64,000 bases of DNA, taken from positions 26,608 to 90,607 of the forward strand of contig JACPGH010000002.1 of the NCBI GenBank assembly GCA_016182485.1, written 5' to 3'. Position 1 is the first letter of the stretch. Each line of letters begins with the position of its first letter. The position numbers and the translations under genes were made by a program. Positions 11,365-64,000 of this stretch are shown in pieces. The notes beneath the pieces were generated by a model. The model saw nothing but the letters and a program-made list of their open reading frames with translations, was not told the origin of the DNA and ran no database searches. The stretch comes from Candidatus Kaiserbacteria bacterium. Lineage in GTDB: Bacteria; Patescibacteriota; Minisyncoccia; Phycocordibacterales; Phycocordibacteraceae.

Positions 11365-11440
11365 TGTGAAGGTCTGACCTTCACATCGAAAAAGTCTGAT
11401 AAAATATACGTATATTGTATGTGAAGGTCTGACCTTCACA
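11365..11440. repeat. paired 21-bp perfect palindromes TGTGAAGGTCTGACCTTCACA x2 (locus 1, 34-nt AT-rich spacer)
   Basis: Exact 10-1-10 palindromes sit at 11365..11385 and 11420..11440, between convergent clpB and a minus-strand small gene. Confidence 0.85.
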
Positions 11441-17958: not shown

Positions 17959-18531
17959 CTAAAAAGTCTCTAGAGCAAGCCTCGCGCCGACGACAAACGA
18001 AAACTCCTTTTTGGCTTCGGCTTCTTCTTTAAGTTGTGAAAGCAGCGACGAGCGCAGGGGTTCGTTAGTACGAAAACACTTATCTATGGCCTTTTGTATG
18101 CGATTTAGCAGCTCCTGTCGGCGCTCTAAAAGTTCGGTCCGATTGAGCTCAATGTCGATAATTGTTAGTTCACCCCTCTCACTACCACCCCTCTGGAAGA
18201 TATATGCCCCTGAAGCCACTACAGAATCATTCGGATCTTCCGAGTAAGGGTTAATATACGGCATTCTATCCTCGTACTTGGTCCCTTTGGCGTTATTGCA
18301 TCGCTGGCAGACGAAACCGAGATTATTCCACTCGAACTCGAGTTCAGGATATCTACCCTTAGGCTGGATGTGCTCGACATCGCCAAATGATGTATCTCTG
18401 ACGTAGGCTTCGCAGTACATACATTTACCACTGGAGGCATCGATTAAAGCCGCCTTGTTATCTGCGTGCTTATAATCGCCAGCCGTAAGTCGGTCAGGTC
18501 TTGGACAGGTCGGGCGATGCAGTCTGATCAT
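17959..18531 (-). CDS. ptuB: HNH endonuclease, Septu PtuB-like
   Basis: Length 190 aa with CMYCE...DVEHIQPKG...FVCQRCNNAKG (His-Me finger). Its start overlaps the stop of the upstream ATPase gene (ATGA). Confidence 0.65.
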   Translation of the reverse strand: MIRLHRPTCPRPDRLTAGDYKHADNKAALIDASSGKCMYCEAYVRDTSFGDVEHIQPKGRYPELEFEWNNLGFVCQRCNNAKGTKYEDRMPYINPYSEDPNDSVVASGAYIFQRGGSERGELTIIDIELNRTELLERRQELLNRIQKAIDKCFRTNEPLRSSLLSQLKEEAEAKKEFSFVVGARLALETF

Positions 18532-19754
18532 TGCGCTTTATCTTCAGCCAGACGATAAATCGCTTCCGGCATCAATCTTTCGAGGCCTATCTCTTTCAAT
18601 TTGTCGCGCATCCGCAGGAGATCTTCTTTGGTAAGGTCCTTCTTCTCAGTATATTCTTTAGTGATTCGTGCCAGATCCTCTTCTGCCCAGATTGGCATCG
18701 TAAAGCTGACACCGAGCACTTCATCCAAAACCTCTGTTGCGGTTCTTGGTTTATCAACCAAGTCAAGCACTTCAGAGTAAACTTTTCCCTCCTTATACCT
18801 GAGTGCTACCACGGTAGAATCACGCACTGATGTCACAATAAGGGGACTGTGGGTACTTATGACAAATGATGCCTTCGGGAAGGCTTTCAAAAGATCTGAG
18901 AGTATCCTCCTCTGCATAGTCGGGTGTAGATGATTTTCCACCTCGTCAATTACGACAACGAAATTATCACGCTTATCGGTTGAGAACATATGTATTTGCC
19001 AAGCCAAGTCAATCATCGTGCTGATTCCACCTGATGCCGCATCAAGAAGGAACTCTCCACTGTCGCAGCAAAACACTATTTCTTGATCCCGGATCTCAAG
19101 TTTTCTAAAACCAAGACTTTTTGGCAGAACTACCTTAAGTACATTTTCAAAATCACGAAAATGCTGTAATAAATCCTCTCGTCCCGGCATAACTGGGTTC
19201 CCATAACCAAAGATATTCCAAGAAACCAGAATCTCTTTCATATGGTAGCTCGATGGAGCACCGCCGCCACCTGAGTAACGATTGCGTACGCTCTCTGATA
19301 TCCTCAAAAAAGCGTCCTCCTTACTAAAGGTTTGGCGCAGCGGCAGGCTGCCCAGCTGCTGATAATTGAATGTCGACCTGTGCGAGGGGATAAAGAATCC
19401 CTCCACATTTTGCTGCCCCCTTATAGTCAGAGTGTATTGTGCTTGCCCAACCAATGGTGCGTGAAGCACAGCTTTTACATCATCGTCATAGATAATTTCG
19501 CCAACATCGTCGCTTGATTTATCCAAGAGGCCCGAAAACCATTCGAGTGTGGAAGTAAGCAGATTCTTTCTAGGAACAGCAAGGCTCATAGAAGACCAAC
19601 CGAAGTGAGAAGCCAAAATGCTCTTGAGAATTGTGGTTTTCCCACTACCGTTGGCACCGGTAATGATAGTCATCCGCCGATGAAAAGGGATTTCAATATT
19701 CCCAAACTGTTGCCACCCTGTGATTTTCAGTTTCTTAAACATATGTTCAATCAT
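18528..19754 (-). CDS. ptuA: AAA_21/ABC-type ATPase, Septu PtuA-like
   Basis: Walker A is GANGSGKTT, the signature-like motif is ASGGIS, Walker B is VVVIDEVENHLHP, and the H-loop is STHSP. Paired with the HNH gene in a lower-GC region. Confidence 0.65.
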   Translation of the reverse strand: MIEHMFKKLKITGWQQFGNIEIPFHRRMTIITGANGSGKTTILKSILASHFGWSSMSLAVPRKNLLTSTLEWFSGLLDKSSDDVGEIIYDDDVKAVLHAPLVGQAQYTLTIRGQQNVEGFFIPSHRSTFNYQQLGSLPLRQTFSKEDAFLRISESVRNRYSGGGGAPSSYHMKEILVSWNIFGYGNPVMPGREDLLQHFRDFENVLKVVLPKSLGFRKLEIRDQEIVFCCDSGEFLLDAASGGISTMIDLAWQIHMFSTDKRDNFVVVIDEVENHLHPTMQRRILSDLLKAFPKASFVISTHSPLIVTSVRDSTVVALRYKEGKVYSEVLDLVDKPRTATEVLDEVLGVSFTMPIWAEEDLARITKEYTEKKDLTKEDLLRMRDKLKEIGLERLMPEAIYRLAEDKAQ

Positions 19755-19820
19755 TGTAACGCTTTTTAAGAATCCAGTACGCCTTATTTTCTATCGGTTG
19801 GAGTTTGTTTGTCATACAGA

Positions 19821-21401
19821 TTACGACACCCATTCCTCTCTTATTCTCCAATCAGTCCTTGGAAACATACTGAGATTAGAAGCCACCATTGTGCTACGCG
19901 GGTCGTCGAACGAGATCGTGACTGAAAACGATCCGTCAGCGTTACGTTTCGGTCGTGCAGAGGAGGCCTTGCTGTACATTTGATACTTTAATCGTAATTC
20001 GACACCATCGTCTTTCTTTTTGAACTTGTTCATTAGAACATCTATCTCATCAAGTGCAGCTCGAATTGTCTCTGGTTTGTTATCACCTAAGTAGTAGGTA
20101 CCATCATAAAGTGCTGCAGAACCACTTTGATTTTCGATTTTTTCAATCTCCAAGTACTTATTTTTTGACCAAAATGAACGTGAATATTTTTCTCCGTTAA
20201 ATAGTGGCGTATTACTTTTGATAACAAACTCGATTGCTCTATGGCCAGTTGCGTAGATGTAAAACAGACAGCCCTGAACTTCTTTGTCGAGTGTTGCTTG
20301 TTGCGCCTTGTGTTGAAGAGCAGAACTATTTCTCCTGAAGAGTATAGGAAACCAATAACCGATCCGGTTATATCTAGTTCCTCCTTGATCAAACGGTTTT
20401 CCATCAACTTTCCATTCGGTAGCAGCTTCATACGCAGCTAAATCACCGACATTCATTACCACGCCTTCTTCCTCCACCATAATATTTAGTCCCATTGTCC
20501 CCTCGTATTTCTTTCGCTCGAACATCGCATAATTTCCATTCGGGAAATGCATTTTGAATCCAGTAAGACCCTCATCCGGAGTTGACAGGAACTCAAGGAC
20601 TTCGAGGTCACGCATTATTCTGTATTTAGAGCCACTAGCTAGTCCCTTTCGTACTTGCTTATAAGTTATGAAGAACGCTGAATAAAAAGCGAAGCACCGA
20701 GAAAGCATATCTGACAACTTCTCAAGACTGATTGATCTGGCACCAATATCCGCACCTTCAATGATACGGAACTCTTCATCAGAGATCGTGTAGTCGGAAT
20801 GATAAAAGGCATTTCTTACTTCATTGTTGAAGAATCCGTCAATGATCTCCCCGATTCGTTCCTCGCCCGACGCAGCCGCCAATTCTTTTATGTAGCTGAT
20901 CTTTTGTCTTGGATATGGCAAATGTCGTCTTGGGAAAAGGCCTTCGGTTTTCCGTTCGACTGTAACCAAATGATCAAAAGGATACATTTTGTATGGTTGG
21001 TCCATACAACATCGCAGTAAGTTTGTTATGACTTCATATGGAGCTGACATTTCGGTTGAATGGCAGTAGAGAAATAGCGCCATTCTTAGCGCCCTCTTCT
21101 CTTGTCCTTTTCCCATTTTCCGCATCATTTTGCTGAAGTCCATTGCGGTATCTTCTGCTTCTACGAACGCATCCCAATGTCCGTCGGTGATTCCTTCTAC
21201 ACGAAGGATTGTGTAGAGATACGTAAAGCCATTTGTATCGCCAGCACGACTGAACAAATGATTGAAATATTCGAGATATTCATCTGTATATTTAGAGAGT
21301 AGGGTCGTGTCTCGTGCGCGCAACCATTTGCGAATCTTCTTTGTGGGCCAAGTCGCGATGTCTCTCATTTCCATAGCTAAGCCATTATTTTCTGCAAGCA
21401 C
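19821..21401 (-). CDS. hypothetical protein in the defence island (N-terminal helical region with HEPN-like R-x4-H motif VRNAFYH; C-terminal ~300 aa of unknown fold)
   Basis: A long ORF of lower GC, co-oriented with and tightly packed between hsdS and ptuA. I recognise no domain beyond the Rx4H motif. Confidence 0.7.
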   Translation of the reverse strand: MLAENNGLAMEMRDIATWPTKKIRKWLRARDTTLLSKYTDEYLEYFNHLFSRAGDTNGFTYLYTILRVEGITDGHWDAFVEAEDTAMDFSKMMRKMGKGQEKRALRMALFLYCHSTEMSAPYEVITNLLRCCMDQPYKMYPFDHLVTVERKTEGLFPRRHLPYPRQKISYIKELAAASGEERIGEIIDGFFNNEVRNAFYHSDYTISDEEFRIIEGADIGARSISLEKLSDMLSRCFAFYSAFFITYKQVRKGLASGSKYRIMRDLEVLEFLSTPDEGLTGFKMHFPNGNYAMFERKKYEGTMGLNIMVEEEGVVMNVGDLAAYEAATEWKVDGKPFDQGGTRYNRIGYWFPILFRRNSSALQHKAQQATLDKEVQGCLFYIYATGHRAIEFVIKSNTPLFNGEKYSRSFWSKNKYLEIEKIENQSGSAALYDGTYYLGDNKPETIRAALDEIDVLMNKFKKKDDGVELRLKYQMYSKASSARPKRNADGSFSVTISFDDPRSTMVASNLSMFPRTDWRIREEWVS

Positions 21402-22943
21402 TGAATGTTTTCTCGCATTTCTTGGACTTTCTCCACTATCCGTTTCTGCTCAGCGAGAGGAGGGAGCGGCATCGGAATTGGGTAAACACTTATTCCTGAA
21501 ATGACCGGTTGCGCGGAGCCTCGATGGGAGGATCTTAGATTTAAATAATTCAGAACGAGCAAAAAGAACTCCTTATCTAAAAAGTTTTCTGGATAACTAA
21601 CTATAAATGCATTGTCAGTTACCCACGCGTCAGATTCTGTAATATAAGCAGTGCCGCAAAGAGCGCCCACACGCCCTATAACAATCGTTCCCCTTGCTGC
21701 GTTAGAGGATGAGTGACGACCTGCTATGCCATTCCCTCCATAGACGAGATATGGTCCTTCAATGGCCTCGCTAACTTTCAGGGAATCGCCTGAGGATATG
21801 TTCATAACATCTCCAAGGCGAACCCACCTCCACGAAGCTGGGATATTAAATGGCGTGTCTGATGCACTAACAGGAGGAAGAAGTTTTGTTGTTTTGCGTT
21901 TCCGACCGGTGCTTAAGGTCTTTAAGCGCTCTTCTCGAATCTTAAGTAGTAGCTCCTCAGCTGTACCTTCCTTGGCATTTTGCAGGACCAGCTTGCCAGA
22001 CACAGCAAGTGTGAGAACTGCGTTCTCGAGTTCTTTGATATCCGATGGTGATTTTACCAACTCAAATAGATACTGAAGAGGCAGTTTACTGTTGCCATCC
22101 CTGAGATCTCTCATCGCACTTCGTGTAAGACGTGTACGTACTGCGTCTCGTTCTTTCTTTTTCGCCTCTAGCTCGTCAAGGCTGCGCATTACGTCCTTGA
22201 TCTTATCCACCATTCGATCCTGCTCACCAGAAGGCGGTAGAGGTATCTCAATCAGAGGCAATGTGTCGCCATTAAGCGTACGCCCCTTAATGGCATTCGA
22301 CGTTCTTCCGGTTAAATCTAGCGCCGGTAATATATGAAATAAATAGTCTCGTAGAGTTTGGTCAGGACTTATGAACGCTGCAATCGCCTCGTTATGACAC
22401 GCGTCCATCTCTAAAATAGACATCTTACCGATGGTCAGCTTAAAACTAAAAAGCAGGGACCCCAGCGGGGCTTTATAACCACGGAATACTTCCTCCAAAG
22501 CAAGTTCGTTAATGGATTCTTTCGTGGAGTGAATTGTGCTGCCATTTATCAAGTCGGAAATGGAAACCCAAGGAGTGTCTGCGGCTGACCAATACTTGGA
22601 TTCAACGCGCGGCGGTGTTTTCCCCACGCGAAACTCGACGATGTCACCAAGTCGAACCCATTTCCAAGAAACCGGGACCTCAAATGGTACCTCTGTCTGA
22701 TCGACAGGTAATAAAGATTCTTTTCTGCGTCTTCGACCATTCTCGGCAACACCCCGCTGCAATCGTTCACTCTGAATCTTCGCATAGAGCTCTTCTCCCG
22801 TGCCTTCCTTCGGGTCGTGCGGAACTAGCCGTCCAGAGACGGCAAGGGTGAGGACTGCTTTACGAAGACGCTCTATGCCGTCAGGCAACTCTAGAAAGTC
22901 ATCTAGGTTTGCGACGATTGTACGTACATCATTTAGTTCCATT
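21377..22943 (-). CDS. hsdS: type I restriction-modification system specificity subunit
   Basis: Two target-recognition domains are separated by conserved coiled regions (LAVSGRLV...; LAVSGKLV...). The MELNDVRTIV start is preferred. It overlaps hsdM. Confidence 0.85.
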
Positions 22944-24374
22944 GTGCGAGAGGGCGCCCTCCAAAAGCGCTCTGATTTTATCCAGTGCTTTCTTGGTTTC
23001 CTCCTGCTTGGTGCGATAGGTAGCAAGAAGCTCTTCAGGGGATTCGACCAATTCCTTCGGGGCACGAGGATTTTTAATATCAAGGTTGTAGTTCCTTGCC
23101 CGGATCTCGTCGATGGATACTTTCCACGCCTGTCCGTTTTCTTCGCGATTGTTCCACCACACCTTTTCCGGCGCGAACTCATCAACGCTCATAGGATTCG
23201 TCATCGAGTAAGCCTTCTGTCCTTTCGGCAGCGGATGCTCGTAGTACCAGATCTCTTTGGTCGGCTCGCCCTTGGTAAAGAAGAGGAGATTCGTGGCTAT
23301 ACTGGTGTAAGGAGCGAAAACGCTCTTGGGTAAGCGTACGATGGTATGCAAATTACACTCCTCGAGGAGCATCTTCTTGAGTGCGGTTTTCATTCCTTCG
23401 CCAAAGAGAGTGCCGTCGGGTAGAACAACGCCGCAGCGGCCGTACTTCTTGAGCAATCGTACGATAAGCACGAGAAAGAGATCTGCTGTCTCTCGCGTTT
23501 GAAACTCGGTCGGGAAGTTCTTCTCGACGCCCGGCTCCTCTGTGCCGCCGAAGGGAGGATTGGTAACTATGCAGTCGATGCGGTCAGCGTCTGTATAGTC
23601 GCGCAGCGGCTTCTCGAGCATATTGCCGCGGCGCATTGTGACTGGCTCCTCAATGCCGTGGAGCATCATATTCGTGATGAGGAGCATATACGGGAGCGGC
23701 TTCTTCTCCACGCCGTGAATGCTTTGCTGGATTTTCGCTTCGTCTTTGACGGTCTTTACTTGTTTACGGAGGTGCTCAAGCGAGTTTACGAGGAATCCGC
23801 CGGTGCCGGCTGCCGGGTCAAACACCGATTCGCCAACCTTCGGGTCAATCATCTCAACAATGAATTGGGTAACGGCGCGAGGCGTATATAGCTCGCCGTA
23901 GTTCTTTGCGCTCTGAAGGCTCTTAAGAAGACGCTCATAGACCTCGTTGAAAGCGTGCCGATCCTTTGAGGTATTGAAGTCGATCTCGTTCACCTTGTTG
24001 ATGACTTGCTTCAGTAGCGTTCCCTTGCGCATAAAGTTGTTCACGTCTTGGAACGCCATACGCGTAAGCTCTGTACGCTGATTACCATTAGTCGGTAGTG
24101 CACGCAGAGCAGGAATTAGGTCTCCGTTTACGAAAGCAACCAACTGCTCACCGGTCAGCCCATCAAGCGGAGCGGCCCACGTGCGCCACTGATACTCTTT
24201 CGGCAGTGTTGGTGTATATTTTTCCTTCCGTATCTCCAGAGCCCTATCTTCGTCGTCAAGGATCTTCAAATAGATGAGCCAAACGAGTTGCGAGAGGCGT
24301 TGCGCATCTCCGTCTACGCCGATGTCTTGGCGCATTATGTCCTGTATGGCTTTGATGGTAGCGGGGGTGAACAT
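22929..24374 (-). CDS. hsdM: type I restriction-modification system DNA methyltransferase subunit
   Basis: Carries the NPPFGG motif, an AdoMet-binding DPAAGTGGFL motif and an N-terminal HsdM domain. Confidence 0.9.
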   Translation of the reverse strand: MFTPATIKAIQDIMRQDIGVDGDAQRLSQLVWLIYLKILDDEDRALEIRKEKYTPTLPKEYQWRTWAAPLDGLTGEQLVAFVNGDLIPALRALPTNGNQRTELTRMAFQDVNNFMRKGTLLKQVINKVNEIDFNTSKDRHAFNEVYERLLKSLQSAKNYGELYTPRAVTQFIVEMIDPKVGESVFDPAAGTGGFLVNSLEHLRKQVKTVKDEAKIQQSIHGVEKKPLPYMLLITNMMLHGIEEPVTMRRGNMLEKPLRDYTDADRIDCIVTNPPFGGTEEPGVEKNFPTEFQTRETADLFLVLIVRLLKKYGRCGVVLPDGTLFGEGMKTALKKMLLEECNLHTIVRLPKSVFAPYTSIATNLLFFTKGEPTKEIWYYEHPLPKGQKAYSMTNPMSVDEFAPEKVWWNNREENGQAWKVSIDEIRARNYNLDIKNPRAPKELVESPEELLATYRTKQEETKKALDKIRALLEGALSHNGTK

Positions 24375-24377
24375 ACG

Positions 24378-24527
24378 TTAGACGATATAGACATTATCGA
24401 GGAGTTCATCCAGCATCCGGAGATATTCATCCTTACCGCCAAAAAGAGAGACGAGTTCGTAATCCGTACCGAGAGAACGAATCGGCTCGAGAGTAAGAAC
24501 ACGTACGCTTTCAATATCCTTGAGAGG
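24378..24527 (-). pseudogene. hsdR: displaced C-terminal segment of hsdR in the +1 frame
   Basis: The alternate frame encodes PLKDIESVRVLTLEPIRSLGTDYELVSLFGGKDEYLRMLDELLDNVYIV* (a typical HsdR tail, FGG...Y). It stops 4 nt before the hsdM start. Confidence 0.6.
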
Positions 24528-26718
24528 CTACGTGCATAATGAGGTCGAACAGATCGAACTCACCACCTACTTGTTTCTGGAGCTCCTCAAGGGGGATTCC
24601 CGTGGCGTCGAGCTGGTCGATGATAGCTTGCCTGCGTTCGGCGGACTGCCAAGCCGTAAAGAAGCTCTCGAGGGTCGGATAGTGATTGAGAATATTCTTG
24701 CGCGTGAAGTCGGTCAGGGATTCGGTTATGAGCTTGCCGTCGGCACCCAAATACTGCACCTGTTCCTTTACGATGGCATAGGGAACGCCGCTTATCGTAT
24801 ATACCGGCGGCCGCCCGATAGGACCTCCTTCTCCGGGACCTGTGATGATCACATCCACGAGCTCGTCTTCCTTTTCTTTTACTTCGATTGGCTCATCTGT
24901 CGGATCTAGCTCTTTCAACACACAGTCGATGTCGTCGTTCTCTCCCACTTCAAACACGCGCTCAGGCACTCCGTCGAATCCGGGGTCAGCGAAAAGTTTC
25001 GTTACGCCCTGAAAATCCATTACCGTGAACCACATTTTGCCTTTATCCTCGCGCACGCGCGTGCCGCGGCCGATGATCTGCTTGAACTCGGTCATACTCT
25101 CAATCGGCTTGTCCAAGACGACGAGCTTGCAGGTTTGTGCATCCACGCCAGTCGAAAGAAGTTGCGAGGTCGTCGCGATTGTCGGGAAGCGCTCTTCCGG
25201 GTCAATGAAGCGGTCAAGCTGATTCTTGCCCTCCTCGTCGTCTCCGGTGATGCGCATTACGTAGCGCACGTTCTCCCGAGCGCGGTCGCCGCCCGCGTTC
25301 ACGAGCGCAGAGCGCATTCGCTCGGCGTGTTCGGTGGTACGACAGAAGACGATAGTCTTTGCGAACGGATCGTCAATCGCGTCCAAGTACTCGATTATCT
25401 TCTTGGCTACCAGCTCATCGCGCTGCGGGAAAATGACCGACTTGTTCACATCGCGAAGCTCATAAATGCGGTCTTCTACAGCATTCCCTTTATCATCCAG
25501 CGTCCCCGGAGAAGGTCGCCATCCGGTAATGTCGTTATCAAGAAGCACACGGAGCACCTTATAGGGAGCAAGGAATCCATCGTCAATCCCTTGTTTCAAT
25601 GAGTATGTGTAAATGGAATCTCCGAAATAATGAGTGGTACTGGTGTCAGTCGTCTCTTTCGGGGTCGCGGTCAGACCGAGGTGAGCTGCGCTCGTGAAGT
25701 GTTCAAGCACCTCGTGCCACTCACTATCAAGTGAGGCACTGCCGCGATGGCATTCATCTACAATAATGAGGTCGAAGAAGTCGGCGGGAAGTCTCTTATA
25801 AAGCTTATCCGGTTCTGTTGGTCCGCTCATAGCCTGATACAGACCGAGGAATATCTGATGCGACATCAGCTTGCCTAGATCGTCGAAGTCGGAGCGAGAT
25901 ATTTTTGTAAGCGCCTCACCGAAATGCTTCAGATCATTTATACGAGCCTGATCAACAAGGATGTTGCGGTCTGCGAGAAAGAGGACGCGCTTTGCGTTTC
26001 CAGACTTCCACAAGCGCCACATAATCTGAGCTGCGGTGTAGGTCTTACCCGTGCCCGTGGCCATAACGAGTAGAAGGCGTCTGCCGCCACGCGCGAAAGC
26101 TTCAACAGCTCGGTCAACGGCGATGCGCTGGTAGTAGCGAGCAAGTTTTATCCCGTCGCCATAGTATTCAGTCTCGACCGCTGAACGTACGGCCGTATTG
26201 TCGCCCTTCCACGCGAGATACCGCGCGTGAAGCTCTGCTGGTGCTGGGAAAGAATCAAGCTCGATCTTCTGTTCTGTCGAGGCAGATTGCCCTGTGCGAT
26301 CGTGAAAGAGGAACGCTTCGCCGTTCGTTGAAAATACAAAAGGCACCTCAAGTGCCGCAGCATAGCCAAGTGCCTGCTGCATACCCGCGCCGAGCGGTTT
26401 GCCGATGTGTTTCGCTTCCACTACGGCGAGAGGCATATTCGGCCGGTGTTCAAGCAGAAAATCGACCTTCTTCCGGTCCCCGCGCTTTACTGTTTTTCCG
26501 CTAACGTGAATACGCCCCTCTGTATAGGCGTACTCTTCCCGTATCTGAGTGTCAGCCCATCCCGAACGCACGATCGCCGGCCTAATCAGGCGATTCCGTG
26601 TTTCTTCCTCGTTTGCGGGTTCTGTGGGCAAGATAAGGCGTATTTTCCCACATTTTTCGTCTTCATTCAATGCTAATAAAAGCGTACTCCGAAATGTCCT
26701 AAGCAGCGATTCTGACAT
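24511..26718 (-). CDS. hsdR: type I restriction enzyme R subunit (frameshifted near C-terminus)
   Basis: It has the N-terminal nuclease domain (VVEAKHIGKPL), SF2 helicase motifs (ATGTGKT, DECHR) and the C-terminal EFDLFDLI motif. Length is only 735 aa. The C-terminus continues in another frame. Confidence 0.85.
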   Translation of the reverse strand: MSESLLRTFRSTLLLALNEDEKCGKIRLILPTEPANEEETRNRLIRPAIVRSGWADTQIREEYAYTEGRIHVSGKTVKRGDRKKVDFLLEHRPNMPLAVVEAKHIGKPLGAGMQQALGYAAALEVPFVFSTNGEAFLFHDRTGQSASTEQKIELDSFPAPAELHARYLAWKGDNTAVRSAVETEYYGDGIKLARYYQRIAVDRAVEAFARGGRRLLLVMATGTGKTYTAAQIMWRLWKSGNAKRVLFLADRNILVDQARINDLKHFGEALTKISRSDFDDLGKLMSHQIFLGLYQAMSGPTEPDKLYKRLPADFFDLIIVDECHRGSASLDSEWHEVLEHFTSAAHLGLTATPKETTDTSTTHYFGDSIYTYSLKQGIDDGFLAPYKVLRVLLDNDITGWRPSPGTLDDKGNAVEDRIYELRDVNKSVIFPQRDELVAKKIIEYLDAIDDPFAKTIVFCRTTEHAERMRSALVNAGGDRARENVRYVMRITGDDEEGKNQLDRFIDPEERFPTIATTSQLLSTGVDAQTCKLVVLDKPIESMTEFKQIIGRGTRVREDKGKMWFTVMDFQGVTKLFADPGFDGVPERVFEVGENDDIDCVLKELDPTDEPIEVKEKEDELVDVIITGPGEGGPIGRPPVYTISGVPYAIVKEQVQYLGADGKLITESLTDFTRKNILNHYPTLESFFTAWQSAERRQAIIDQLDATGIPLEELQKQVGGEFDLFDLIMHVASQGY

Positions 26719-26743
26719 CGCGAATCACGCGGAGCCATTTCGT

Positions 26744-26979
26744 CTATGCAACGCGTATTTCGAGATCTTTGATATGTCGTGCTTGGTCGTCAAGTTCAGG
26801 TCGGACAACCTGGTCTATGCGTTGATGCACTTCATGCACGGCTGTTTCCAACTTATCCATGCGGCCTTCAAGTCTATCAAACCGTTTATCAACCTCGTCG
26901 AACCGCTCGTTCATTGCCGAGAATCCGTCCGCTACCATACGCGCAAGGCTATCAATATCATTTTCTTGCTCCTTGGCCA
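26744..26979 (-). CDS. small coiled-coil protein leading the hsdRMS array
   Basis: MAKEQENDIDSLARMVADGF...DKLETAVHEVHQRIDQ. Length 78 aa. It sits directly upstream of hsdR on the same strand. Confidence 0.5.
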
Positions 26980-26987
26980 TTGCCCAT

Positions 26988-27192
26988 AGCTTACCACGAC
27001 AACCACGACCACCCTCACCGAAGCGCAGAAAATATACGATACCAATACAGACAACCGCATCGACGTGCTCGACTTCAATGCGCTCATCGTGCATTGGGGC
27101 GAGACGGGGGCGAATGCCGTTGCCGACTTCGACAAAAACGGAGTCGTGGACGTGTTCGACTTCAATTCATTAATGGTGCACTGGACCGCGTA
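26988..27192 (+). pseudogene. orphan dockerin-domain fragment (C-terminal piece of a truncated gene)
   Basis: The frame opens after a stop at about 26985 with no plausible start. It encodes a T-rich linker plus two dockerin-type Ca-binding repeats (DTNTDNRIDVLDFNALIVHW; DFDKNGVVDVFDFNSLMVHW). Confidence 0.5.
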
Positions 27193-27988: not shown

Positions 27989-28007
27989 TTTCGACCTCCG
28001 TCGCTCT

Positions 28008-28071
28008 TGTGAAGGTCAGACCTTCACAAGCTGTGAATCTGCAATGTCTTCTGTGAAGGTCAGACCTTCAC
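28008..28071. repeat. paired 21-bp palindromes TGTGAAGGTCAGACCTTCAC(A/G) x2 with 23-nt spacer (locus 2)
   Basis: Palindromes at 28008..28028 and 28052..28071. The spacer is AGCTGTGAATCTGCAATGTCTTC. Confidence 0.85.
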
Positions 28072-28163
28072 GACAAGGGGCCGTGTATCTTGACAAGCTT
28101 TATTAATTAGTATATATACCAGACCAGAGTGCGATCGTACAACCTCAATGCAAGGAGGCCATC

Positions 28164-28661
28164 ATGCTGCCATGGATCCAGCAGTTGAACGAGCGGATGA
28201 AGCAGGTCGACACGAGGCCTCTCCTCGAGCAGCTGGAGCTTGGAGCCAAGCTCCAGCCTCATGAGCACATCGTCGGAAAGCTTTCCGATGAGATGCTCCG
28301 GCTCTTCGGCGTCGTCCTCGCGCAGGGGATGGAGATGATTAGCCACATGGGGCGCTGCGCGGATCTGTTCGACCGGCTCCCGGAGATGGAGTCGGAACTC
28401 GAGATCGAGGCGAGGATAAGGCCCCTCATGTCGGAGGGCGCGGAGCTCTCCCGACGGCTACAGCTCACCGAGGACCTGTTCTGGGCGTCGATCATATTCG
28501 AGTTCCCCGAGGCCGCGAACAGGAATCGCGGGATTCGGGCGGGCGGGCGGGTCGTCGTCTGGGAGACCGAAGCCGACCCGCGGCGGATGCGCCAGCAGAT
28601 GGCCGCAGGCGAGCTTGCGGCCATCATAAGCAAGCTGGAGCAAATCCACCTCCGCAACTAG
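28164..28661 (+). CDS. hypothetical protein (165 aa) bracketed by identical 65-bp repeats
   Basis: The start is preceded by AGGAGG. I recognise no domain. Confidence 0.65.
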   Translation: MLPWIQQLNERMKQVDTRPLLEQLELGAKLQPHEHIVGKLSDEMLRLFGVVLAQGMEMISHMGRCADLFDRLPEMESELEIEARIRPLMSEGAELSRRLQLTEDLFWASIIFEFPEAANRNRGIRAGGRVVVWETEADPRRMRQQMAAGELAAIISKLEQIHLRN

Positions 28662-28704
28662 GGCTGGCGGGCGCCGAACCCTTCTGGGTCGGCGCCCGGT
28701 TTTT

Positions 28705-28731
28705 CTACCTTCTCTAATTCGAGCGCGGTGC
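28705..28731. repeat. direct repeat CTACCTTCTCTAATTCG(A)GCGCGGTGC, copy 1
   Basis: Matches 29747..29771 apart from one extra A. Confidence 0.5.
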
Positions 28732-28777
28732 CCGTCCGTAGCTACAAGCGGAGGAGGGAATAGGCGAATAAGTCCGT

Positions 28778-28842
28778 TGTGAAGGTCTGACCTTCACAAG
28801 CTGTGAATCTGCAATGTCTTCTGTGAAGGTCAGACCTTCACA
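28778..28842. repeat. paired 21-bp palindromes (locus 3), identical including the spacer to locus 2
   Basis: Palindromes at 28778..28798 and 28822..28842. The spacer is AGCTGTGAATCTGCAATGTCTTC. Confidence 0.85.
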
Positions 28843-29746: not shown

Positions 29747-29771
29747 CTACCTTCTCTAATTCGCGCGGTGC
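29747..29771. repeat. direct repeat CTACCTTCTCTAATTCGCGCGGTGC, copy 2 (followed by TATATAT)
   Basis: Matches 28705..28731. Together the two copies bracket the M50 gene and locus 3. Confidence 0.5.
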
Positions 29772-29820
29772 TATATATCATCTCCCCGACCAATCATTTA
29801 CATCTGATCCGCACAAAGGG

Positions 29821-31828: not shown

Positions 31829-31854
31829 CCCCGAATAGGCGAACAATGGCCATC

Positions 31855-31919
31855 TGTGAAGGTCAGACCTTCACAAGCTGAGAATTTTCGGCGCTTTCTG
31901 TGAAGGTCAGACCTTCACA
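31855..31919. repeat. paired 21-bp palindromes TGTGAAGGTCAGACCTTCACA x2 (locus 4)
   Basis: Palindromes at 31855..31875 and 31899..31919. The spacer is AGCTGAGAATTTTCGGCGCTTTC. Confidence 0.85.
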
Positions 31920-33283: not shown

Positions 33284-34972
33284 ATGACCCAAGGCGAGGC
33301 GCTCTCGATTCTCAAGACCGGCGCGAACGTATATCTCACCGGCGAGCCGGGAAGCGGCAAAACGCACGCGATAAATGAATTCATCGCGTGGCTGCGTCTT
33401 TCAGGGATAGAGCCGGCTATCACGGCCGCGACCGGCATCGCGGCGACGCACGTCGGCGGCATGACACTGCACTCGTGGAGCGGAATCGGCATTGCCGAGT
33501 CGCTCTCGCGCGCCGATATAGATCGCATCGCCGGGAAGGAGCATGTCGCCCGCAGGCTCCAAAAAGCCTCAGTGCTTATCATCGAAGAAATCTCCATGCT
33601 CTCCGCGGCGACATTCGAGATGGCGGATGCCATTTGCCGCGAAGCGCGCCGTGCCGAGCTCCCATTTGGCGGGCTCACGGTCATCCTCGTCGGAGACTTT
33701 TTCCAATTGCCGCCTGTGGCGCGTGTTCAGGCGATGTCCGTGCGCTTCGCTTACGCTTCGCCCGTTTGGGACAAATTAAACCCGATCACCTGTTACCTAA
33801 CAGACCAATATCGGCAGGATGATGTTGAATTTCTTGGCGTACTCTCGGCGATACGCGCCGGAGAGGTCGAAGAGGCTCATTATGAAGCGCTCATGGCGCG
33901 GCATACGGAGCCTGGCACCCCGCCCGCCTGCGCTCCGAAATTATTTTCGCATAATGCCGACGTCGATCGAATAAACGCGCAGGAACTCGCGAAGCTACCG
34001 GGCAAAGCGAAGACTTTCCGGATGAACGCGAAAGGGAAGGAGCAATTTGTAGAAGGGCTGAAGCGCGGGTGCCTCTCGCCGGAAATTCTCGAACTGAAGG
34101 AGGGCGCGGCGGTCATGTTCACGAAAAACTCTCCCCAAGGGAAGTTCGTCAACGGGACGCTCGGCGTTGTCGCGGGTTGGAGCTTCGATGGCTCGCCGAT
34201 TGTTGAGATACGCAGCCCCTCGACAAGCTCGGGACATCGGTTCCGCGTAACCGCGGAACCGATGGAATGGCAGCTTGAGGAACAAGGGAAGGTGCGCGCG
34301 AGTATCTCGCAATTGCCCCTACGGCTCGCCTATGCGATGACAGTCCACAAGAGCCAAGGAATGAGCATGGATGCGGCGGTCATCGATCTCTCGAAAGCCT
34401 TTGAATACGGGCAGGGATATGTGGCGCTCTCGCGGGTGCGGCGATTAAGCGGAGTGCATCTCACCGGCTTAAACGCGCGCGCGCTCGAAGTCCATCCGGA
34501 AATTCTTGAAAAAGACAGGGAATTCCGCGCCGCGTCTGACGCGGCGCGGGAAGCATTTGCGGCTCTGCCAAGCGCCGAGCTCGCAGGCATGCAGAAAAAA
34601 TTCGTCAAAGCCATAGGCGGCGCTTGGCCCAATCCCTCGCAATCGCTCGGGACGGCCCGGCAGCCCGGCTCGGCCGGGCTGCCGGGCCGTCTGGCAGAAA
34701 CCCTGCAGACCGTGCGGGATGCGAACGATTTAAATGCAGCGGCGAAGGCGCGCGGACTCACCGTTTCCACCATCGTGAAGCATTTGGAAGAACTGGCCGA
34801 AATAGGGAAGCTCGCCAGCGCTGATTTCGAGCACCTTATTTCTCAAGGCGAACTGCACGAGATCGCCGAAGCCATAGAAGCTGCCGGCCGCGAGCGCCTC
34901 TCGCCCGTTTATCATGCGCTCGGCGGCCGGCACTCATTCGAAACTATCCGGCTTGTCCGCCTTCTCAAGTAA
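33284..34972 (+). CDS. Pif1/RecD-like SF1 DNA helicase with C-terminal helix-turn-helix domain
   Basis: Walker A is GEPGSGKT and Walker B is IIEEISML. Pif1 family motifs are present (QLPPV; VHKSQG). The C-terminal HTH is TVSTIVKHLEELAE. Confidence 0.8.
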   Translation: MTQGEALSILKTGANVYLTGEPGSGKTHAINEFIAWLRLSGIEPAITAATGIAATHVGGMTLHSWSGIGIAESLSRADIDRIAGKEHVARRLQKASVLIIEEISMLSAATFEMADAICREARRAELPFGGLTVILVGDFFQLPPVARVQAMSVRFAYASPVWDKLNPITCYLTDQYRQDDVEFLGVLSAIRAGEVEEAHYEALMARHTEPGTPPACAPKLFSHNADVDRINAQELAKLPGKAKTFRMNAKGKEQFVEGLKRGCLSPEILELKEGAAVMFTKNSPQGKFVNGTLGVVAGWSFDGSPIVEIRSPSTSSGHRFRVTAEPMEWQLEEQGKVRASISQLPLRLAYAMTVHKSQGMSMDAAVIDLSKAFEYGQGYVALSRVRRLSGVHLTGLNARALEVHPEILEKDREFRAASDAAREAFAALPSAELAGMQKKFVKAIGGAWPNPSQSLGTARQPGSAGLPGRLAETLQTVRDANDLNAAAKARGLTVSTIVKHLEELAEIGKLASADFEHLISQGELHEIAEAIEAAGRERLSPVYHALGGRHSFETIRLVRLLK

Positions 34973-34996
34973 AGAGGTTAAACCTCTTTACTTTCG
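34970..34996. terminator. palindrome AAGTAAAGAGGTTAAACCTCTTTACTT overlapping the stop codons of convergent genes
   Basis: 11-bp arms. It contains the helicase TAA and, on the other strand, the HAD-gene C-terminal codons SKEV and its stop. Confidence 0.55.
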
Positions 34997-42480: not shown

Positions 42481-43011
42481 ATGGCCCTCGACGTACAGTT
42501 GTTCTATCTTTTTAATGGCCTCGCCGGCCGGTCGGCTCTGCTTGACCAGATAATCGTCTTTTTCGGGTCGTATCTCCCGTATCTGGTCATCGCAGTATTT
42601 TTTATCCAACTGCTGATTTCCGGTTATTCGTACAGGGAGAAATCGCGGATGCTTCTCGTCGCCTTTGCTTCTGCCGCCATCGCGCGTTGGGGGATGGTGG
42701 ACCTTATCCGCAATTGGTATCACCGGCCGCGGCCGTTCTCGGCGCTGCCTGTGCGCCAATTGCTCGAGAACAGCGAATGGTCTTTCCCGTCCGGACATGC
42801 CGCTTTCTTTTTCGCGCTTGCGACGGCCGTGTTCTTCTATGACAGGCGGTGGGGGACCGGGCTTTTTACCGCGGCCATTTTCATTTCTTTCGCCCGAGTC
42901 GCCGCCGGCGTCCACTATCCCTCCGATATATTGGGCGGAGCCGTTCTAGGCATCCTCGCCGCCTGGGCGGTACGTTTAATTGCACTAAGGATATTAAGTA
43001 AAGAGGTTTAA
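42481..43011 (+). CDS. PAP2-family phosphatase (undecaprenyl-diphosphatase-like)
   Basis: Contains the PSGHA and YPSD...GG motifs. Confidence 0.8.
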   Translation: MALDVQLFYLFNGLAGRSALLDQIIVFFGSYLPYLVIAVFFIQLLISGYSYREKSRMLLVAFASAAIARWGMVDLIRNWYHRPRPFSALPVRQLLENSEWSFPSGHAAFFFALATAVFFYDRRWGTGLFTAAIFISFARVAAGVHYPSDILGGAVLGILAAWAVRLIALRILSKEV

Positions 43012-43021
43012 CCTCTTTACT
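42995..43021. terminator. palindrome AGTAAAGAGGTTTAACCTCTTTACT containing the PAP2 stop codon (second copy of the 34970 element)
   Basis: The same arms as at 34970. It encodes the C-terminal SKEV residues and the stop. Confidence 0.5.
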
Positions 43022-43122
43022 TATCGCGAGGAGCGATTATTCGAACCCATTGACTTTTGCTTGTCAATATGCTAGTATAAAAAAACCTAGATAGCTAGCC
43101 GCTATTTTGGTCAATCTAAGCA

Positions 43123-53366: not shown

Positions 53367-53432
53367 TGTGAAGGTCAGACCTTCACAAGCTATGATATCT
53401 CAAAGTCATACTGTGAAGGTCAGACCTTCACA
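53367..53432. repeat. paired 21-bp palindromes TGTGAAGGTCAGACCTTCACA x2 (locus 5) in the divergent promoter region next to the sigma-54 activator
   Basis: Palindromes at 53367..53387 and 53412..53432. The spacer is AGCTATGATATCTCAAAGTCATAC. Confidence 0.85.
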
Positions 53433-63138: not shown

Positions 63139-63511
63139 AATGGTGCAATTATATCAGCTCAGCGGCCAAGATTATCCCCGGGCGCAACGGGATTGGGGAA
63201 GGGAAGTGAGCTCGTCGAAGCAGCGGGTATCTAATTCAAAGTCCAGATAGTGTAGTTCAAATACGCGGCGTAGCTCACCCAAGGAATGTAGGGCGCCAGG
63301 AGCCACGCGGCCGTACATCCTTATATACTCAAGTATATTGGGATGTTGTTTTTTATTCCGAGGCTTGAAGGACCACACAAGGTAAAGCGCGTGCGGGGCC
63401 GGGCCTACTTCTGGCTGAACCTGAAGAACGCATCGTACGACTCATTGTAGCCGGGCTTGTCGTAGGCGACTTTCCAGCCCGCCGAAAACGATACCTTATA
63501 TTCTCAAGTAT

Positions 63512-63799
63512 TTAAGGATGTTTGCGGAAGGATTGCAGGAATTTAACAAAGCTTTTGCCGTAAGGCGAAAGCGTATGCTCGACGAATTTCCCCCGGTATT
63601 TCTTGTTGACCAATCCTGCCACGGCAAGCCGTCTCGTGTGCTCTCCAAGCGTCTTCTCGTTCGCGCCGATCGCGGAAACGATATTGTCCAACGTCGCTCC
63701 ATCGTTATCCGCGATGTACAGCAAAATTTCAATTCGGTAATGGTTCGACATTCCCTTCAAATGCCGCTCCATCTGTCTCGCTGTTTTCATTTTTGCCAT
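63512..63799 (-). CDS. ArsR/SmtB-family winged-helix transcriptional regulator
   Basis: The HTH reads ATLDNIVSAIGANEKTLGEHTRRLAVAGLV. Length 95 aa. Confidence 0.65.
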   Translation of the reverse strand: MAKMKTARQMERHLKGMSNHYRIEILLYIADNDGATLDNIVSAIGANEKTLGEHTRRLAVAGLVNKKYRGKFVEHTLSPYGKSFVKFLQSFRKHP

Positions 63800-63820
63800 G
63801 CTTACATTATCTCACTATAG

Positions 63821-63846
63821 CCTTATATACTCAAGTTTTTAAGGAT
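63821..63846. promoter_or_regulatory. operator-like dyad CCTTATATACTCAAGTTTTTAAGGAT, about 22 bp upstream of the ArsR-family gene
   Basis: The same 26-28-bp motif recurs at 63317..63344 and 63494..63519 (CCTTATAT(A/T)CTCAAGT(A/T)T(A/T)T.AGGAT). Confidence 0.45.
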
Positions 63847-64000
63847 ATTAAGGGACGCGGGACAGGGCCTTAACTCTGGTGCGACGTGATTTATGTTGAT
63901 GAATAAGTTTGAATGCGTTGCTTACTTTAGTTATTTTTTATCAGAATTAGGAGGCTCAACAAATTTTAATGAGATCGAATTCACGCAATGGCGGATGTTT

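Follow-up and report, generated by a model that had tools for sequence, protein, structure and literature searches.

Repetitive extragenic palindromic (REP) sequences have a known role at the 3' ends of transcripts, and classical REPs are species- or genus-specific. The mechanism of the IS200/IS605 insertion sequences is known from IS608 and ISDra2 and leaves no target-site duplications. An overview of the IS200/IS605 family is available (PMC6006769). Hairpin-forming REP doublets (REPINs) and REP-associated tyrosine transposases (RAYTs) were defined in Pseudomonas fluorescens SBW25 and Enterobacteria (Bertels & Rainey 2011, PMC3116915; Bertels et al. 2017, PMC5581495). The traits that define them are repetitive, extragenic and palindromic sequences, mostly arranged as doublets with a less conserved spacer and able to form a hairpin, which flank a Y1 transposase gene whose neighbours are shared across relatives (PMC3116915, PMC5581495). 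Here we describe a 64-kb stretch of DNA (the window) from a Candidatus Kaiserbacteria contig, in which a gene encoding a 165-aa protein is bracketed by two direct copies of a 65-nt repeat. We conclude that the 65-nt units are probably REPIN-like elements of a REP/RAYT system and that the gene between them is an ordinary, self-contained one. The host differs from those of the described systems in belonging to the Patescibacteria, or Candidate Phyla Radiation (CPR), and in its genome of roughly 1 Mb. In the literature we found no paper linking REPs or RAYTs to Patescibacteria or reporting the palindrome described below.

The repeats resemble REPs and REPINs in the structural features that can be tested: they are over-represented, extragenic, palindromic, arranged as doublets and predicted to form a hairpin, and the same genome carries a RAYT-like, IS200-related Y1 transposase gene flanked by the same repeats. 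From this genome (locus tag HYV30) the analysis covered the window plus some 11 kb of another contig. Five doublets were located in the window:

11366..11439: doublet; palindromes starting at 11366 and 11421; 36-nt spacer matching the others weakly (16-17 of 36; 17/36 against the pair at 28 kb); between convergent genes, 17 nt past a stop codon.
28007..28071: left REPIN-like doublet of the bracket; palindromes 28009-28027 and 28053-28071, central A in both; spacer AAGCTGTGAATCTGCAATGTCTTCT; starts 19 nt past the stop codon of a 253-aa gene; single-stranded DNA (ssDNA) fold with z = -4.8.
28777..28841: right REPIN-like doublet of the bracket; palindromes 28779-28797 (central T) and 28823-28841 (central A); located where the 165-aa gene and an M50-like gene converge with their 3' ends.
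31856..31918: doublet of the AAGCT type; palindromes starting at 31856 and 31900; spacer 17/25 identical to the pair at 28 kb; starts 27 nt past the stop codon of an ABC-2 permease gene.
53368..53431: doublet of the AAGCT type; palindromes starting at 53368 and 53413; spacer 21/26 identical to the pair at 28 kb; in a divergent intergenic region.

The two bracket copies lie 770 nt apart from start to start and are identical at 64/65 positions (98%). They differ only in the central W of the first palindrome, with A at position 28018 in the left copy and T at position 28788 in the right one. A unit is built from two perfect palindromes of 19 nt, GTGAAGGTCWGACCTTCAC (search pattern GTGAAGGTCNGACCTTCAC), around the 25-nt spacer AAGCTGTGAATCTGCAATGTCTTCT; when measured between the 21-nt palindromes TGTGA...TCACA the spacer has a length of 23 nt. 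The original prediction of a 65-bp repeat pair around the gene, with an identical 23-nt spacer in both copies and different spacers at the other loci, was reproduced.

The window contains ten exact palindromes, all of them paired, with gaps of 25–36 nt, whereas 0.00 were expected (100 shuffles; mismatch-tolerant search). No degenerate or single palindromes were detected in the window even when up to five mismatches were allowed. The doublets are spread over 42 kb at a density of about one per 13 kb, with every palindrome perfect. While the palindrome cores are 100% conserved, spacers are only 60–84% identical among the AAGCT-type pairs outside the bracket: the spacers of the bracket pair match at 25/25 positions, the remaining AAGCT-type pairs at 15–21 of 25–26. 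The same layout is found at the three other loci, and in two of them (31856 and 53368) the spacer also begins with AAGCT. All five doublets are located between long open reading frames (ORFs), two of them in convergent and one in divergent regions, and three begin 17–27 nt after stop codons. An Rfam scan of the window returned three tRNAs only. The motif GAATAGGCGAAYAA occurs exactly at 28758-28771 and 31833-31846, 7–9 nt upstream of two doublets, and may extend some copies of the doublet at the 5' end.

Sequence identity between the bracket copies coincides exactly with the extent of the doublet, and three other sites in the window carry a doublet without bracketing a gene. Most likely the mobile or homogenised unit is the doublet alone and not the repeat-gene-repeat arrangement. 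The earlier suggestion of a unit flanked by miniature inverted-repeat transposable elements (MITEs) came close to this, in that a non-autonomous MITE-like element is involved, but the element is the 65-nt doublet itself. Independent per-run Logan assemblies stop at 28048 and start at 28812. Since the k=31 assembly graph of a two-copy repeat with this A/T difference predicts breaks at exactly these positions, the repeat and its mismatch are real in the reads and no artefact of the assembly of the metagenome-assembled genome (MAG); contigs that stop at the repeat in this way are uninformative on the presence or absence of the gene.

As ssDNA each doublet is predicted to fold into a single long hairpin by pairing of its two palindromes with each other (z of -4.8 to -9.9). 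This hairpin is the minimum-free-energy structure of all seven doublets examined except the left one of the bracket, for which it is the centroid structure. For the right doublet the minimum-free-energy fold is a single 25-bp hairpin (-26.6 kcal/mol, z = -9.5): the A-to-T change in this copy turns a central A.A mismatch into a T.A pair, so that the hairpin is fully paired. Two small hairpins represent an alternative fold, as each REP is a perfect palindrome itself. This marks a difference to described REPINs, because with perfect palindromes of 19–21 nt and a single central W an "inverted orientation" of the two REPs is undefinable. At loci of the genome collection described below the conserved core often sits within a longer palindrome, whose outer arms vary from locus to locus yet remain complementary, so that a hairpin and not a fixed duplex site is preserved.

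Doublets of the same palindrome also flank a transposase gene of the same genome. This gene (P0065; MBI2410188.1, HYV30_04110) encodes a 236-aa protein annotated as a Kaiserbacteria transposase and is located on another contig (locus L047). Its neighbours are tagged HYV30_04115, HYV30_04105 and HYV30_04090 and the bracketed gene of the window is HYV30_00590, which places both in the same MAG. The doublets at 2587/2632 and 3396/3441 of L047 are separated from the start and stop codons of the transposase gene by 24 and 10 nt, respectively, and they are in inverted orientation with the AAGCT-extended palindrome outermost at both ends. The predicted relationship of the repeats to a mobile element was thereby borne out. 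A further repeat-gene-repeat arrangement in this genome, which the original prediction had proposed to look for, exists at this locus in the form doublet-gene-doublet, although inverted, but not at the other three doublets of the window. The genes next to the RAYT (PG_binding, TPR, Wzy_C, L10, L12) are common to two other Kaiserbacteria loci, L051 and L053, where the flanking palindromes are the variants GTGGAAGTTWAACTTCCAC and GGAAGGTCNGACCTTCC, which keep the core GAAGGTC-N-GACCTTC or a related one.

A perfect palindrome of REP-like architecture, AAGTAAAGAGGTTWAACCTCTTTACTT, is present as a pair in the window at 34967-34993 and 42996-43022, with 13-nt arms and a central W. It resembles the variant GTGGAAGTTWAACTTCCAC beside the RAYT in L053, and the pair may represent a second REP family.

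In a genome collection with one genome per species the exact 19-nt palindrome was found at 46 loci (L001-L046), about 39 of them in Patescibacteria and seven in non-CPR genomes. For two 19-mers in 596 Gb about 4 hits are expected by chance, which the seven non-CPR hits fit. The Patescibacteria with the palindrome comprise Saccharibacteria, Paceibacterota, Kaiserbacteria, Nomurabacteria and Parcubacteria. In contrast to classical REPs the core is thus shared by distant Patescibacteria lineages, and this cross-lineage conservation is unusual. At five loci (L014, L024, L030, L035 and L038) the palindrome is present on both sides of one gene, 756–801 nt apart, and this gene encodes a protein of 235–242 aa that matches Pfam Y1_Tnp at 28–34 bits (cutoff 23). 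The palindrome is absent from viral contigs. A generic doublet pattern found a single locus in metagenome contigs, a Nomurabacteria-like RAYT locus, and the exact spacer AAGCTGTGAATCTGCAATGTCTTCT had no match there.

The transposase family comprises 986 proteins at E <= 1e-5, mostly of 236 aa. All 17 sampled members match Pfam Y1_Tnp (best E 4e-8) and NCBIfam REP_Tyr_transpos and nothing else, the latter at 27–29 bits and hence below the curated equivalog threshold of 80. An HxH motif (H84, H86) and the tyrosines Y127, Y140 and Y144 are invariant in the sampled transposases, and those flanked by the palindrome (among loci L001-L046, L047 and L061) share 37–78% identity. Sequence profile searches of the PDB with the RAYT family found no solved relative. 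The family belongs to the HUH/Y1 fold family as do the IS200/IS605 transposases, with which it also shares hairpin-forming sequences on either side of the transposase gene and the lack of target-site duplications: no consistent duplication was found at any of the five doublets or around the whole unit. In contrast to multicopy IS200/IS605 elements there is one copy of the family on each contig inspected, and none in the window; moreover, the bracketed 165-aa gene is not a transposase gene, and the data hold no second bracketed unit. At L024 2193-3025 (a Nomurabacteria genome) and L061 2913-3745 (a metagenome contig) a shorter RAYT-like frame contains palindromes of the same family and also has them alongside. 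These two may be disrupted or rearranged RAYT loci.

The bracketed gene carries its own expression signals, all of them inside the bracket:

28090..28158, + strand: expression signals of the 165-aa gene; promoter-like site TTGACA at 28090-28095, 17 nt, TATATA at 28113-28118, ribosome binding site (RBS) AAGGAGG at 28152-28158, 5 nt before the ATG; past the left doublet.
28164..28661, + strand: HYV30_00590 (MBI2409523.1), the 165-aa gene; member of a small family of unknown function.
28669..28704, + strand: intrinsic terminator belonging to the 165-aa gene; stem rich in G+C, then TTTTT; separated from the right doublet by 72 nt.

The ORF and its strong RBS agree with the original prediction. A consensus promoter scan did not list the promoter, since the last base of its -10 element is A and not T, and the site was found by direct reading. 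For the terminator the scan gave a stem at 28684-28699 with a T-run, while the longer stem was read directly. The proposed profile and structure checks of the 165-aa protein were carried out. A word-indexed protein search returned only the protein itself, on a single contig. An exhaustive phmmer search of 1.84 billion representatives, in contrast, yielded 22 distant homologs of 144–314 aa with 24–38% identity; we consequently rejected ORFan status in favour of a real family. The aligned family has the common motifs VVG..SD.L.RL, LFW.S...EFPE and GIR.GGQVV, and the protein matches no Pfam, NCBIfam, PHROG or PADLOC family. AlphaFold2 predicted a long helical hairpin against a small sheet with a predicted local distance difference test score (pLDDT) of 87.7 when supplied with the homolog alignment, as opposed to a poor model (pLDDT 59) from the single sequence. 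A Foldseek comparison of the model with the PDB gave only generic helical hairpins (E >= 0.4) and no significant fold.

Four homolog loci in other genomes show ordinary chromosomal settings with neighbours such as glmS, msrA, NUDIX and hisS, and neither flanking direct repeats nor REP-like palindromes were found at these four. All inspected family members are richer in GC than their host locus by 8–16 points, with a GC content at third codon positions (GC3) of 0.70–0.89 (window 28164-28661; L056 5001-5471; L062 4001-4546; L064 4001-4516; L066 4001-4480). This excess is seen even where neighbouring genes are common to two of the homolog loci. The 165-aa gene is real, conserved and not generally associated with these repeats, and we judge it to be a bystander between two doublets. 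A decayed RAYT between the repeats was considered and rejected: tblastn with three RAYTs gave E values of 4–5 on the minus strand, and the interval is occupied by a plus-strand gene with promoter, RBS, terminator and a conserved family.

Similar inverted repeats were observed at two of these loci, ACCCCGTTAGAAAT/ATTTCTAACGGGGT at 27193-27206/27248-27261 of the window and ATCCCGTTAGAAGC/GCTTCTAACGGGAT at 4703-4716/4801-4814 of L056. The former straddles the start of the 253-aa gene. The latter, in another MAG, precedes the gene of the closest homolog of the 165-aa protein by ~200 nt. Both may be instances of a shared regulatory site.

Other types of bounded units were compared with the bracket. 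With an integron cassette it has in common a promoter-proximal small gene bounded by repeats containing imperfect palindromes. It differs in lacking the R''/L''/L'/R' organisation of attC sites, in repeats that are dispersed and not arrayed, and in a gene with its own promoter and terminator. Direct reading of the 65-nt unit revealed neither a GTTRRRY nor a RYYYAAC core, confirming that it is not a classical attC. The combination of terminal inverted repeats and target-site duplications that characterises MITEs and composite transposons was not found. We rejected attC sites as well as MITE ends of a dedicated cassette, as the repeats are of the REP/REPIN type and flank the RAYT-like gene of the same genome.

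When five doublets were placed at random among the intergenic regions of the window, the probability that two of them flank one gene was about 0.25-0.3, so the adjacency of two doublets is unremarkable. By analogy with REP/RAYT and IS200/IS605 systems, a RAYT would recognise the hairpins on ssDNA and copy doublets into intergenic DNA, often just past stop codons. The location of three of the five doublets 17–27 nt past stop codons would fit either such a target preference or a selected role at transcript 3' ends. The 165-aa gene would then merely happen to lie between two occupied intergenic spaces.

Several observations weigh against REPIN-like units around an ordinary gene. The transposase of the same genome on its own reaches only 22.2 bits against the Pfam Y1_Tnp cutoff of 23, and because the family scores below the NCBIfam cutoff it is RAYT-like and divergent, not the classical equivalog; at about 236 aa and under this RAYT cutoff it differs from classical RAYTs. 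Transposition, cleavage and excision by this RAYT are predictions from sequence. The layout of the bracket mirrors that of the RAYT locus, with start-to-start spans of 770 and 809 nt. GC3 of the 165-aa gene is 0.86 compared to 0.67 +/- 0.08 for long ORFs in the window; high GC3 is nevertheless not countable as a sign of recent transfer, given that the whole gene family is GC-rich. No other pair of doublets in the window is as similar as the two adjacent ones, which alone have identical spacers. Finally, a second direct repeat, CTACCTTCTCTAATTCG(A)GCGCGGTGC, is present at 28705-28733 and 29747-29775, with an exact 17-nt core that is found nowhere else in the window (0.18 expected). This repeat and the 65-nt one are interleaved, which suggests an additional local rearrangement; enclosed by the second repeat are the right doublet, the M50-like gene and the promoter of that gene.

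Since independent chance insertions do not predict identical spacers, some local process must be added to REPIN-like insertion. The identical doublets of the bracket could reflect a recent local copy of one of them into the next intergenic space, by analogy made by the RAYT, or alternatively gene conversion over 770 bp. Once in place, the 65-bp direct repeats would make the 165-aa gene prone to deletion by recombination.

The original prediction had called the unit cassette-like, and the arrangement could be read as a cassette if the direct doublets acted as end hairpins of the IS200/IS605 type and a RAYT in trans excised and reinserted the 835-bp unit as ssDNA. We regard this as unlikely. An intact HxH and tyrosine transposase is encoded in the genome, and its gene is found in the same doublet-gene-doublet layout; the doublets of the bracket are direct and nearly identical, hairpins are possible on both strands as every REP is a perfect palindrome, and the GC3 of the gene is atypical. 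Protein and unit are, on the other hand, single-copy in all data searched, with the exact spacer lacking a metagenome match, the homologs inspected elsewhere are not flanked by repeats, and doublets stand alone at three other sites. The two layouts also differ, the RAYT gene being flanked tightly (24 and 10 nt) by inverted doublets, whereas the doublets around the 165-aa gene are direct and leave it 92 and 115 nt of regulatory DNA of its own. Passenger movement of the gene is topologically possible but unsupported, and a mobile gene cassette is not established. Similarly improbable is the proposal that the gene was captured in a RAYT "slot" from which it is excisable as ssDNA, with a gene-shuffling role for REPIN/RAYT in streamlined CPR genomes; if true, the near-universal REP core of Patescibacteria would let cassettes move between lineages.

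The bracket could also be the scar of a recombination event, in which circular or foreign DNA with the gene and one doublet integrated at a resident doublet, by homologous or site-specific recombination, and left attL/attR-like copies. Direct copies whose identity ends exactly at the doublet borders would be expected from this, the interleaved second repeat suggests local rearrangement, and both the gene and its M50-like neighbour are nearly orphan and adjoin a low-GC type I restriction-modification island at 18-27 kb. Neither a donor sequence nor an empty site was found, however, and high GC content characterises the whole gene family instead of marking a recent transfer, which leaves this origin improbable. 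Least convincing, and in our estimation very improbable, are operator sites, in which case a conserved transcription factor would bind the palindromes and control the gene from either side. The conservation of a perfect 19-nt palindrome in several Patescibacteria lineages and the position of the doublet at 53368 in a divergent promoter region would be in line with operators. Two of the five doublets are, by contrast, located between convergent gene ends without a promoter and three lie 17–27 nt after stop codons; in six or more genomes it is specifically Y1 transposase genes that have the palindrome on either side, and the variable outer stems stay complementary, so that a hairpin is kept and not a duplex site.

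Regarding the surroundings of the bracket, a segment of lower GC content at 18000-27000 (41–53% versus about 58%) encodes a type I restriction-modification system (hsdM, 22929-24374; hsdR, 24511-26718; both on the minus strand). This segment, which directly precedes the bracket, probably represents an acquired island. The M50-like neighbour is nearly an orphan with 2 hits, and no close relatives of the region were retrieved from the databases searched. A 34-nt AT-rich repeat resembling CCTTATATACTCAAGTATATTGGGATGTT is present in three copies at 63314-63347, 63489-63522 and 63816-63849, within the low-GC terminal part of the window.

Most of the REP/RAYT systems characterised so far are from Proteobacteria. 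The window holds a dense, apparently well-maintained population of REPIN-like elements in a reduced Candidatus Kaiserbacteria genome, and homologous transposase genes in Saccharibacteria, Paceibacterota and Nomurabacteria are accompanied by the same 19-nt core. In CPR genomes, repeats of this kind interrupt short-read assemblies precisely at the doublets, and they can mimic "cassettes" in sequence scans. The system is a tractable case for the persistence of a domesticated transposase and its repeats in minimal genomes.

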